From assembly GCA_045597605.1 (NCBI GenBank), contig JAZLKN010000042.1, forward strand, positions 15,504 through 79,503: a DNA stretch of 64,000 bases, in the 5' to 3' direction. Every line of letters starts with the position of its first letter. The first letter of the stretch is position 1. Made by a program: the position numbers and the translations under genes. Shown here piece by piece: positions 9,449 through 60,845 of the stretch. The DNA comes from Candidatus Cryptobacteroides sp. (GTDB taxonomy: Bacteria > Bacteroidota > Bacteroidia > Bacteroidales > UBA932). The notes under the pieces were generated by a model. That model did not search any database, was not told where the DNA came from, and saw only the letters and a list, made by a program, of their open reading frames with translations.

Positions 9449-9524
9449 ATTACGGCAGTACCACCACTTCAGGCGGGCATAACCCATGATCAAAAGCCCC
9501 CTGAAATGGTGGTACTGCCGTAAT
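9449..9524. repeat. Long palindrome, loop-conserved family copy 1
   Basis: Arms 9449-9473 and 9500-9524 (25 bp, 1 mismatch), inner GGGC/GCCC, loop ATAACCCATGATCAAAA. Confidence 0.9.
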
Positions 9525-9536
9525 TATGTGTTTTGC

Positions 9537-9581
9537 GTACTCACTCCCTCACTTCTCCAAGGAAGTAGCCACAACTTCAGG
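9537..9581. repeat. Degenerate REP-like inverted doublet
   Basis: GTACTCACTCC (9537-9547) and GGAAGTAGCCAC (9561-9572) resemble the units at 12099-12209. Confidence 0.6.
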
Positions 9582-9636
9582 AGATTCCGCACAGGAATTA
9601 AACTGTTTTGCCGACTGATTTCGATAAGAGAAGCCA

Positions 9637-10965
9637 TCAATGCCTCATCCGGCGGGCCATCTGCATCATCGCAGCCGGGTTGATTGCCATCTTCATCATC
9701 TTGCGGCTGCTCTCGAACTGCTTGAGAAGCTGATTGACTGCCTGGAGAGACGTTCCTGAACCGTCCGCGATGCGCTTGCGACGGCTGCCGTTGATTATGT
9801 CAGGGTTTTCTCGCTCGTATGGCGTCATTGAAAGAATTATGGCCTCAGTGCTCTTGAAGGCCTTGTCATTATCGATTTCTATGTCCTTGATCGCCTTACC
9901 AACCCCAGGAATCATACCGGCCAAATCCTTTATATTACCCATCTTGCGCACCTGCTGTATCTGATTGTAGAAATCCTGGAGATTGAACTGATCCTTGGCA
10001 ATCTTCTTCTTCATCTCACGGGCCTGTTTCTCGTCAAACTGGGCCTGGGCCTTCTCCACGAGGGAGACGACATCACCCATACCGAGTATTCTGTCGGCCA
10101 TACGTGCCGGATGGAATACATCGAGAGCATCCATTTTCTCTCCAGCGGAAACAAACTTGACAGGTTTTCCCGTAACAGCCTTTATTGACAAGGCGGCGCC
10201 ACCGCGTGTGTCTCCGTCCATTTTTGTCAGAACAACACCCGTAACTGACAATCTCTCATTGAATATTTTTGCTGTTTCTACGGCATCCTGGCCAGTCATC
10301 GCATCAGCAACAAACAGCGTCTCAGTAGGATTTATAGCCTTTGAAAGAGTCTCAATTTCATTCATCAACTCCTCATCAACGCTCAAACGTCCGGCTGTAT
10401 CAACTACGACCACGCTGAATCCGTTTGATTTTGCATAGGTGACGGCGTTCTTTGCTACTTTAACGGGGTCTTTCTCACCTTCCTCACTATAGACGGGAAC
10501 TTCGACACTTTCAGCAAGGACTTTCAACTGATCTATTGCCGCAGGACGGAAGGTGTCACAGGCAGCAAGCACCACCTTCATTCCTTTCTTGCTCTTTATG
10601 TAATTGGCAAGTTTGCTGCTGAGTGTGGTTTTACCGGAACCGTTCAGACCGGCAACCAGAATGATTGCGGGACTGCCTTTCACTTTGAGCTCGCTGGCCT
10701 CGCTTCCCATCAGTGCAGCGAGTTCATCGTGCACAATCTTTATCATCATCTGACCGGGATTAACTGCCGTCAGAACATTGGCTCCCATTGCCTTGGCTTT
10801 TACATCATCGCAGAAACCCTTGGCCACCTTATATGACACGTCGGCATCCAGCAAAGCCCTGCGGACTTCCTTCAAAGTTTCGGCGACGTTGATTTCAGTA
10901 ATCTTTCCCTGGCCCTTCAGTATTTTGAGCGAACGCTCAAGCTTGTCCTGTAAGTTCTCGAACAT
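9637..10965 (-). CDS. ffh: Signal recognition particle protein Ffh
   Basis: MFENLQDKL, GLNGSGKTT, DTAGR, TKMDGDTRGGAALS and M-domain motifs. Confidence 0.98.
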   Translation of the reverse strand: MFENLQDKLERSLKILKGQGKITEINVAETLKEVRRALLDADVSYKVAKGFCDDVKAKAMGANVLTAVNPGQMMIKIVHDELAALMGSEASELKVKGSPAIILVAGLNGSGKTTLSSKLANYIKSKKGMKVVLAACDTFRPAAIDQLKVLAESVEVPVYSEEGEKDPVKVAKNAVTYAKSNGFSVVVVDTAGRLSVDEELMNEIETLSKAINPTETLFVADAMTGQDAVETAKIFNERLSVTGVVLTKMDGDTRGGAALSIKAVTGKPVKFVSAGEKMDALDVFHPARMADRILGMGDVVSLVEKAQAQFDEKQAREMKKKIAKDQFNLQDFYNQIQQVRKMGNIKDLAGMIPGVGKAIKDIEIDNDKAFKSTEAIILSMTPYERENPDIINGSRRKRIADGSGTSLQAVNQLLKQFESSRKMMKMAINPAAMMQMARRMRH

Positions 10966-11190
10966 ATCAATCCGTGTTAAATCCAGTCAAATTTCAAATT
11001 AAGACGCTTCAGCCTTAAATGAAGACGTTCGCAAAGATAGTGTGTTTGTCGGTATAATCAATGAAAACGGTATCGTTTTTCAGAAAAAGTACAGAGTTCA
11101 GGCCAAATGTCATTTTTCGGGGTCTTGAACAGTATTGAATAAACCGCTAAGTTTGCGATTCATAACTGAACCACAAACTGCTTTAGAATT

Positions 11191-12123
11191 ATGAATTACT
11201 TCAATGAAAATGACGATTACGGATGCAATCCTATCCGTTTTTATCACGTATGTACCGATGGGGAGGATAATGGCATTGTGTACACATCTGAAAACGATTA
11301 CAGGCAAGCTGTCACGATAAGCGCAATCTGTGCTTACAAAGCAGATGTCAAAATCGTTTGCTTCTGCCATATGTCAACCCACTCACATTTTGTGATTTGG
11401 AGCGACAGCTACGATAAGGCTGAATGTTTTTCCAATTCATTCAAGCGGGATTATTCAAGGTATTTCGTTCTGAAATATAGGGCAGATCCGGTATATTGCG
11501 GAATTTCGGCAAAACCGATTTTAATTGCTGATCGGTTTTACCTGATGAACTGTATTGCGTATGTACTGAACAACCCGGTTGCCGCAAAGATTACTTCCAG
11601 GGCAGAGGATTACAGGTGGTCATCATTCAATGCATATTTCAACGAATCATCCGACGACAGTGTACCTATCGAACACTTGGGAGTAAGAAATATCCGCAAT
11701 ATTCTTCAAACCAAGACAAAATTGCAAAATTCCGGATTCCGTATCAATACGGACGGCTCGATACATTTAAAGTCGTACATCGATTATGGGATTGTGGAAA
11801 GAATTTATGGTGGCAAGAAAGAATTCTACCGTTCGATGGCGATGACCGACAGCGCCGTCGAAGAGATGAGATATGTTTCGCACGTTGTCCGTTTCACCGA
11901 TACTGAATTGTACGCGGAAGCACTGGAAATAGCACGCCGGAAATACTCCACAAATACCTTGAACCTTCTTACAAAAGAACGGAAGATTGCTCTTGTCATA
12001 CCTTTGCAGCGAAAAACCAAAGCATCTGTCGAAAGGATAGCACGCATTCTCAGAATTAGTCCGAAAGAGGTAAAAAGATATGCAGGATTGATAGAGGATG
12101 TGGCCACTCCTTCAGAAAAGTAA
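11191..12123 (+). mobile_element. HUH/Y1 tyrosine transposase, REP-associated (RAYT/TnpA-REP) type
   Basis: FYHV N-terminal strand, HUH motif CHMSTHSHFVI, catalytic-Tyr motif AYVLNNPVAA, AEDYRWSSF (RAYT-type xEDYxWSS), C-terminal helical extension; about 40-42% GC in sampled lines versus about 50-55% in core genes; own TAAGTTTG promoter; no tnpB nearby. Confidence 0.85.
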
Positions 12124-12209
12124 GGGAGTAGCCACGCAACCGGCCTTATAGCATGTTGTGTTAAGGTGAAGTGTGGCCACTCCATACACAAACCGAGGGA
12201 GTGAGCACA
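12099..12209. repeat. BIME-like array of four alternating inverted REP-like units
   Basis: TGTGGCCACTCC (12099-12110, fwd), GGAGTAGCCAC (12125-12135, rev), GTGTGGCCACTCC (12171-12182, fwd), GGAGTGAGCACA (12198-12209, rev). Confidence 0.85.
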
Positions 12210-20078: not shown

Positions 20079-20110
20079 GAGGCCGGCCAAAATAACTTTT
20101 GGTCGGCCTC
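20079..20110. terminator. Terminator-like hairpin
   Basis: GAGGCCGGCCAAAA-TAAC-TTTTGGTCGGCCTC; core nearly identical to the hairpin at 60818-60845. Confidence 0.7.
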
Positions 20111-20157
20111 CTCGTTTATGCCATATTCCACCGTACAGGCGAATGAACGGATTATCA

Positions 20158-20253
20158 AAACGGGCCATAGCACTTCACGGCACGTTTATCATGGGTTATG
20201 TGCCGTGAAGTGCTATGGCCCGTTTCCTCAATGTCACCGAAGTGGCATAGGCA
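20158..20253. repeat. Long palindrome, loop-conserved family copy 2, plus conserved flank
   Basis: Perfect 26-bp arms 20158-20183 / 20200-20225, loop GTTTATCATGGGTTAT; flank 20226-20253 matches 60732-60759 in reverse complement (24/28). Confidence 0.95.
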
Positions 20254-60716: not shown

Positions 60717-60731
60717 AGTTCGAACCGCAAG

Positions 60732-60812
60732 TGCCTGTGCCACTTCGGGGACGTTGAAGAAACGAGGCATAGCACTTCACGACACGTTTTATCATGGGTT
60801 ATGTGCCGTGAA
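60732..60812. repeat. Long palindrome, loop-conserved family copy 3 (right arm truncated)
   Basis: Flank 60732-60759, left arm 60760-60785 (23/26 identical to the 20158 arm), loop GTTTTATCATGGGTTAT, only 10 nt of right arm (GTGCCGTGAA). Confidence 0.9.
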
Positions 60813-60817
60813 CACAA

Positions 60818-60845
60818 AAAAGCCGGCCAAAATTGGTCGGCTTTT
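60818..60845. terminator. Bidirectional intrinsic terminator (rne / rpsU)
   Basis: AAAAGCCGGCCAA-AA-TTGGTCGGCTTTT. Confidence 0.8.

Follow-up and report, generated by a model that had tools for sequence, protein, structure and literature searches.

Long palindromic repeats with a conserved loop in a Candidatus Cryptobacteroides genome: a probable lineage-restricted family of REP/REPIN-type DNA elements

The DNA analyzed here (the window, 64,000 nucleotides) is the segment C42:15504-79503 of the 1.80-Mb, 65-contig assembly of an uncultured gut Candidatus Cryptobacteroides sp. (G000; 51% G+C). A preliminary description of its sequence had proposed that three far-apart sites share a 12-nt loop core, and this was borne out: the core ATCATGGGTTAT is present at 9479-9490 on the minus strand and at 20188-20199 and 60791-60802 on the plus strand, whereas 0.25 matches are expected, and three or more were obtained in 0 of 100 shuffles. 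All three sites lie between convergent genes, as had also been described, namely C_GCAxxG_C_C/ffh, ferredoxin/PNP, and RNase E-G/S21. When strain variants were sought through exact matches to the PNP protein, no record was returned; the start codon chosen for this protein may be wrong. The features at these sites and at a RAYT-like gene, P0001, are as follows, with letters A to F denoting the hairpin types discussed below.

9449..9524, no strand assigned: subfamily-B long hairpin, with loop ATAACCCATGATCAAAA at 9479-9495 in the opposite orientation
9537..9572, plus strand: E-type small hairpin GTACTCACTCCCTC...GGAAGTAGCCAC, the remnant of an E doublet and the left boundary of the inverted ffh-RAYT segment
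11191..12123, plus strand: RAYT-like HUH-Y1 gene P0001, 310 amino acids, with HSH at 64-66, Y124VLNNP, and Y141RWSS
12100..12208, minus strand: E-hairpin doublet (12100-12135 and 12173-12208, 73-nt period), the first unit of which overlaps the last codons of P0001
20079..20110, plus strand: terminator-like hairpin of the ferredoxin gene itself, distinct from the repeat
20125..20156, no strand assigned: F-type imperfect hairpin flank ATTCCACCGTACAGGCGAATGAACGGATTATC, the same flank being found at C36:38480, C1:6386, and C1:8617
20158..20225, no strand assigned: subfamily-A long hairpin, with arms 20158-20183 and 20200-20225 and loop GTTTATCATGGGTTAT at 20184-20199
20226..20253, no strand assigned: half of an outer C-type element, consisting of a CCTCAAT loop remnant and the right arm GTCACCGAAGTGGCATAGGCA
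60730..60812, no strand assigned: truncated C::A composite, with left C arm 60730-60752, GTTGAAG at 60753-60759, A left arm 60760-60785, loop 60786-60802, and right-arm stub 60803-60812
60816..60845, plus strand: separate terminator-like hairpin AAAAAAGCCGGCCAAAATTGGTCGGCTTTT, downstream of the RNase E/G gene

The hairpin at 20158 has the perfect 26-bp arms that were claimed for it, closed by a 16-nt loop. Folded as DNA, it reaches −34.9 kcal/mol (z = −11.5), and it is a member of alignment A1 and of the covariance model R1, with 84.9 bits. Of the span 20158-20253 that had been singled out, positions 20226-20253 lie outside the hairpin and derive from an outer C-type element, only one half of which is present: its left C arm is missing, in contrast with full C::A composites such as those at C19:20136 and C10:40417. 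The F-type flank at 20125-20156 usually adjoins C-type elements and makes the 20158 copy chimeric. The F hairpin proper is imperfect and 24 nt long (GTTCAYCCGT-ATGG-ACGRATGAAC), and it borders C-type elements on one or both sides elsewhere (C36:38440-38580, C1:6350-6480), which suggests that a full C unit may be ~140 nt.

The copy at 60786 contains the loop core but is not the full hairpin that had been described, given that its right arm stops after 10 nt (60803-60812) and its z score is only −2.6. Both the 20158 and the 60786 copy are half-composites, the former having the F-type flank on its left and the C arm on its right. The copy at 9449-9524 behaves as described, with an outer stem that is unrelated to that of the 20158 copy and yet nearly fully paired (1 mismatch and 1 bulge, z = −9.7). 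The terminator-like hairpins at 20079-20110 and 60816-60845 have common arms, GCCGGCCAAAA / TTGGTCGGC; this arm motif occurs 5 to 7 times in the genome and may represent another small repeat family.

Across the 1.8-Mb genome, ATCATGGGTTAT has 30 exact matches where ~0.2 are expected. When up to one mismatch was allowed, 45 matches were found, 44 of which sit in the loop of a long hairpin, so that the core is far more frequent than chance and is embedded in long inverted repeats. Searches with nhmmer gave 59 copies, and the covariance model R1 gave 94 strand-matches. Moreover, a blind scan of the genome for hairpins with arms of at least 18 bp and loops of 12 to 22 nt retrieved 57 hairpins, ~54 of which constitute one superfamily. 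The dispersed REP- or MITE-like palindrome family that had been suspected from three sites is thus real and comprises ~62 elements in four subfamilies (A to D). The unit is a 66- to 72-nt hairpin with arms of ~26 bp and a loop of 16 to 18 nt.

Subfamily A: left arm AAACGAGCCATAGCACTTCACGGCAC, loop GTTTTATCATGGGTTAT
Subfamily B: left arm ACGGCAGTACCACCACTTCAGGGGAC, loop TTTGTATCATGGGTTAT
Subfamily C: left arm AAAGTACCTATGCCACTTCGGGAAC, loop GTTTTAACATGGGATATT
Subfamily D: arms C-like, extended by CCT, loop GGAGAAAGGGTATA

The inner (proximal) part of the stem, CACTTC-N-GG-N-AC, is common to the four subfamilies, whereas the outer 13 bp are wholly different between them and still paired. At the foot of the stem, subfamily B begins with RCGGCAG and subfamilies A, C, and D begin with AAA(A/C)G. 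Three or four T residues are found on both sides of A, C, and D elements, and none at B elements. The family matches none in Rfam: there were no matches at the gathering score across the window, and an E-value scan of the hairpin against Rfam returned only sub-threshold look-alikes of microRNA precursors.

The contrast between an invariant loop and covarying stems, on which the original proposal rested, is measurable. In an alignment of 35 copies from subfamilies A, B, and C, RNAalifold predicts 26 pairs, 24 of which show compensatory changes. Within subfamily A (24 copies), 29 compensated double changes were counted versus 32 single-arm changes, several of the latter contributed by just two copies, one with an indel and the other truncated. 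The 12-nt loop core of this subfamily is changed at 5 of 288 positions (1.7%), compared with 7.2% in the arms, which makes the loop core approximately four times more conserved than the arms. Conservation in A-D elements is highest at the loop and inner stem and not at the outer termini. Compensated changes are also in place in orthologous copies of the sister species introduced below. A mini-ORF in the A/B loop and stem (ATG GGT TAT GTN CCN TGA, encoding MGYVP and a stop) was rejected, given its random orientation and given that neither subfamily C nor the other species have it.

The arrangement of the copies points to mobility at the DNA level. Some 15 of the 24 A copies are adjoined by a C arm, always at the same position of the C loop (GTTKRAG, then A, then TGWCATGGGATATT; the empty C loop reads GTTTTGTCATGGGATATT). 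The nested A elements occur in both orientations, and the outer C-arm variants differ among copies. Judged from the sequences, these two observations favor repeated insertion of A into C loops; a C::A composite could also have arisen once and then spread as a unit.

Further evidence comes from the sister species G163, a horse-feces Bacteroidales metagenome-assembled genome (JAKSKP01; 84% complete) that is 80 to 88% identical to G000 and is the only other genome with many copies. None of its ~20 elements is of A type, all being B, C, or D, which indicates that subfamily A is a recent burst in G000. At C36:9707, G000 has a precise empty site relative to the filled site of G163 (L031), where an 81-nt insert directly follows a TAA stop; no clear target-site duplication was found in this comparison. 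The B copy at 9449 is absent from the orthologous site of G163, where an E hairpin is found instead. At C29:20873-20947, G000 has an A-type element, whereas the same intergenic site of G163 (L036) has a C-type element with its loop in the opposite orientation; this site stays occupied while its occupant is swapped between subfamilies. Colinearity with G163 is lost around the copies at 20158 and 60786; at the former locus G163 contains an additional 3.3 kb of genes, and its sequences flanking the latter are on different contigs. An integron attC-like reading was considered and rejected, given that the flanking genes are core genes and that the 3.3-kb indel is not bounded by hairpins. At C59:455-568, where G163 has a single hairpin, two B elements lie side by side in G000: one is intact, and the other, which lacks its left arm, directly adjoins it with its loop and right arm.

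The long hairpins are themselves targets of insertion. An ISL3-family element of 1532 bp that generates 8-bp duplications is inserted inside one A and one B hairpin, with the duplications GTTATGTG and TGAAGTGC, and a third copy adjoins another palindrome. The element is seen at C36:53323-54854 (DDE_Tnp_ISL3, apparently frameshifted), with junctions at C50:47934, C43:17040, C2:117, and C63:116. Several contigs terminate inside hairpins. Breaks at the loops could result from the general fragility of palindromes without the action of a site-specific enzyme.

The genomic positions of 49 elements were classified on a crude gene map of longest ORFs. Twenty-four are convergent, 23 tandem, and 2 divergent, compared with 212, 910, and 215 intergenic regions, respectively, genome-wide (p = 7e-8 for the convergent excess), and 47 of the 49 lie 3′ of a gene, mostly 5 to 70 nt past the stop codon. 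The loop has no strand bias: its orientation relative to the upstream gene in tandem contexts is about 11:9, and relative to local GC skew it is 24:25 (n = 49). Since a loop-specific RNA function would need a fixed orientation, the random orientation of the loop indicates a DNA-level element and not a loop-specific RNA, and the structured-RNA motif that had been offered as an option is disfavored. The hairpins behind stop codons probably also act as passive bidirectional structures at transcript ends. Compared with intrinsic terminators, which combine a short GC-rich stem, a loop of 3 to 8 nt, and a T run in a fixed orientation behind a gene, they present a mixed picture: their stems are 26 bp and their loops 16 to 18 nt, T residues are present on both sides of A, C, and D and at none of the B elements, and separate canonical terminator hairpins adjoin two of the window copies (20079-20110 and 60816-60845).

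Beyond this genome, the covariance model R1 matched G000 only among 40 relatives, and it had matches in 7 of 201 sampled species of the genus, which is a lower bound because few candidates were scored per genome. The matches in G079, G095, G166, G191, and G216 have unrelated stems of 21 to 33 bp and loops of 16 to 17 nt, and they keep the loop theme ATAAaCCC-N5-AAAA and the inner stem type TTCGGGGAC. The exact A/B loop and stem pattern had no match in 185,579 GTDB species genomes or in JGI metagenome contigs. This pattern is too strict, given that the G163 copies differ from it by one stem base, and the genus-wide covariance model is the fairer test. A single match in IMG/VR lies inside a coding region, lacks a model match, and is a chance hit.

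The protein encoded at 11191-12123 had been put forward as the obvious reader of the loop. That it is a genuine HUH-Y1 protein with a RAYT-like fold is supported by several observations. Within its family, H64-x-H66, Y124, N128, Y141, W143, and S145 are invariant, and P129 and S144 are conserved in at least 90% of members. P0001 has no Pfam match at 1e-3, with a weak match to Y1_Tnp, and a sequence search of the PDB returned nothing useful; with the NCBIfam model REP_Tyr_transpos (NF047646), it scores 23 bits against a cut-off of 80. The AlphaFold model (pLDDT 86.9) has as its best PDB fold match 4er8_A (E = 8.8e-4), the E. coli RAYT bound to a REP, followed by the transposases of IS608 and ISDra2. 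A helical C-terminal domain of ~150 amino acids extends beyond the HUH-Y1 part. The other half of the claim fared less well, since the hairpins adjoining the gene are of E type and not long hairpins of the A-D type. The three HUH genes of G000 have no A-D hairpin within 1.5 kb, and the long hairpin nearest to P0001 is 1.7 kb off and absent from that site in G163.

The E hairpin measures 36 nt (GTGCTCACTCCCTC-loop-GAGGGGAGTGGGCAC). G000 contains 17 E hairpins, all of exactly this length, arranged as doublets (period, 73 nt; conserved spacer, 37 nt) at 8 loci (C1:31042, C6:666, C8:456, C15:18611, C19:19895, C26:8277, C47:393, and 12100-12208 in the window), an arrangement that resembles BIMEs or REPINs. 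The E remnant at 9537-9572 lies on the far side of ffh in inverted orientation. E doublets follow or overlap the P0001-clade gene in G000, G163, L023, L024, and G216, and G079 has a single such hairpin. The bracket recurs in G163 and in the metagenome contigs L023 and L024, the P0001 orthologues of these two contigs being 86% and 80% identical, and the 44%-identical homologues of G216 and G079 have E-like hairpins of another sequence behind the gene. On this comparative evidence, E is the positional, coevolving partner of P0001. The 2.6-kb segment containing ffh and the RAYT-like gene (9537-12208) is inverted in G000 and G163 relative to L023 and L024, and its ends are inverted E doublets.

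Whether the same protein has a part in the biology of the long hairpins was addressed through co-occurrence, as had been suggested. The P0001 clade, defined at E ≤ 1e-45, is found in 6 of 201 species, with one copy per genome. R1 hairpins are present in 4 of the 6 clade-positive genomes versus 3 of the 195 others (Fisher p = 8e-6, with phylogeny ignored). This correlation stands, but it is incomplete: the genomes G191, G095, and G166 have long hairpins without a P0001-clade gene, and two clade-positive genomes have no model match. At 5 of ~10 E loci, an A-D hairpin is found within 150 nt (p = 0.01), and a CACTYC stem core is common to the E and A-D families; this clustering and the common core are the sole direct hints that one enzyme might serve both. 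The link of P0001 to the long hairpins, through co-occurrence and the CACTYC core, is plausible but only correlative. Two more HUH paralogues are encoded in G000, at C50:11749-12732 and C43:756-1577, with an NHLH motif and ~22% identity to P0001. Genomes of the genus have 1 to 11 very divergent HUH paralogues, some bracketed by unrelated hairpins of their own (L018 in G009, L019 in G010).

The A-D hairpins are best explained as lineage-restricted, nonautonomous palindromic DNA repeats of the REP/REPIN type, with the HUH-Y1 class as the likeliest source of the enzyme; we assign this reading a probability of about 0.6. The active form would be a folded single strand or an extruded cruciform. The loop core, together with CACTTC-N-GG-N-AC, would be the module read by a mobilizing or processing protein, the distal stem needing only to pair, and the loop would, in addition, be where new copies preferentially land. 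The RAYT-like HUH-Y1 nucleases of the genus would be the likeliest enzyme class, with P0001 as one tentative candidate, about on a par with another paralogue or an unknown enzyme. The lack of a GC-skew bias gives no support for strand-specific insertion of single-stranded DNA, and flipping of the loop between perfect arms could erase such a bias. A more specific proposal, which we regard as unlikely, is that the repeats form a distinct REP-type class in which the loop and inner stem, and not a tetranucleotide at the foot, are recognized and an HUH-Y1 protein nicks or docks in the loop, so that the loop would serve for processing and also be favored for integration. Such a double role would explain the nesting, the overwriting of one subfamily by another, and the loop theme shared across unrelated stems.

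The rival explanations differ in the enzyme, in the nucleic acid, or in the mode of transposition. The long hairpins may be REP-like mobile DNA while P0001 serves the E doublets only, the mover being one of the NHLH paralogues (C50 or C43) or an unrelated enzyme. This is a genuine, if minority, possibility: E or E-like hairpins overlap or follow the stop codon of the P0001-clade gene in all six genomes and contigs examined, their sequence changing with the protein; three genomes have long hairpins without the clade; and the genus has a reservoir of 1 to 11 divergent paralogues per genome, some with bracketing hairpins of their own. It is countered by G163, in which ~20 hairpins of the A-D type coexist with a P0001 that is 95% identical and in which the C50 paralogue has no homologue at E ≤ 1e-10 (in a genome that is 84% complete), and by the fact that neither NHLH paralogue has an A-D hairpin nearby.

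That the elements are mainly RNA, i.e., a 3′-UTR or terminator motif with a loop bound by an RNA-binding protein and dispersed by selection, would fit their position 5 to 70 nt after stops, the convergent enrichment, the A and T runs that flank A, C, and D in the manner of bidirectional terminators, and the strong covariation. With an orientation of ~11:9, however, half of the transcripts would bear the complement of the loop, the flanking genes retain canonical terminators of their own at 20079-20110 and 60816-60845, T tracts are missing from subfamily B, and Rfam gives no match at threshold. Nesting, truncation, presence/absence, and subfamily replacement are, moreover, DNA-level behaviors, and we consider the RNA explanation quite improbable. 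We hold it very improbable that the elements are MITEs. In that case, the arms would correspond to the terminal inverted repeats of a DDE transposon, and a transposase encoded at another site would move the elements as double-stranded DNA. Long near-perfect inverted repeats around a short internal segment, and a dispersed, noncoding distribution that varies between species, are what this would predict. Against it, the clean empty/filled pair has no clear target-site duplication, the flanks are inconsistent across copies, and the 96%-complete assembly contains no isolated arm or full-length element with these ends. The only IS seen, ISL3, has unrelated ends (GGCTCAGGRG...), and conservation peaks in the loop and inner stem, whereas inverted repeats read by a transposase are expected to be conserved at their outer termini.

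The REP/REPIN-type assignment is consistent with what is found in the REP/REPIN-RAYT systems of Proteobacteria (REP/BIME with RayT in E. coli, REPINs in Pseudomonas), which are likewise dispersed intergenic palindromes in tens of copies, lineage specific, located at gene 3′ ends, with concerted evolution of the arms, mosaic clustering alongside further palindromic units as in BIMEs, and a single-copy HUH-Y1 gene with a RAYT-like fold in the same genome. REP elements are also targets of IS insertion (PMC1525189), as the A-D hairpins are here. The differences are substantial. A REP is an imperfect palindrome of 20 to 40 nt with a GTAG/CGTC foot, whereas the A-D unit is a long, near-perfect hairpin with 26-bp arms and a conserved 16- to 18-nt loop, and no conserved GTAG/CGTC foot or flanking tetranucleotide was seen among the A-D copies. 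Unlike REPs, the A-D elements are most conserved in the loop and inner stem and can be nested, one copy within the loop of another, and the RAYT-like gene has hairpins of a separate family, E, on its flanks. P0001 itself departs from RAYTs in its length of 310 amino acids, its extra C-terminal domain, and its score of 23 bits against the cut-off of 80.

Quentin et al. (2018) described, within class 2 of TnpA-Y1, subclass 2.1 with a C-terminal HTH, for which no REP was found ("TIRYT"), and subclass 2.6 from Bacteroidetes with "atypical secondary structures" (PMC6006769). By description, P0001 resembles subclasses 2.1 and 2.6 in its YxxxNP followed by SS, C-terminal helical extension, low copy number, and atypical flanking hairpins; its HuH motif is T-H-S-H, as opposed to their NH[LIV]H. 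Long fixed-loop hairpins are not described in that study (PMC6006769). With IS200/IS605 elements (IS608, ISDra2), P0001 shares the HUH-Y1 fold, and the hairpins of these IS are recognized as folded single strands, as the A-D hairpins would be. Unlike in those elements, no tnpA lies between A-D hairpins, the gene is single copy rather than multicopy and identical, and no cleavage tetranucleotide was seen. Correia elements of Neisseria and other MITEs are likewise short, noncoding, bounded by inverted repeats, dispersed, and often located at transcript ends; the A-D elements differ in that neither a TA or other duplication nor a parent IS was found, and their most conserved part is the internal segment, of only 17 nt. 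A long-stem, fixed-loop design was not found in Rfam or in the REP/RAYT papers PMC6006769, PMC3116915, PMC3733652, and PMC12306157. The combination of a long near-perfect stem, a conserved loop and inner stem, loop nesting, and fast subfamily turnover is a previously undescribed variant of the REP/REPIN theme.

The biology of REP/REPIN-RAYT systems is known almost wholly from Proteobacteria. Bacteroidales, an abundant gut order, has palindromic repeats of its own and of a different design, with a long perfect stem and a fixed loop. Their turnover is fast, with the burst of subfamily A absent from the sister species and sites reoccupied by other subfamilies. Synteny breaks, an inversion, and IS insertions are all found where the repeats lie, so that the repeats probably influence genome rearrangement; they probably also break metagenome assemblies, as several contigs end in hairpins. 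In this family the loop, the inner stem, and the outer stem are naturally separate variables, which would allow a clean test of recognition by HUH-Y1 proteins.
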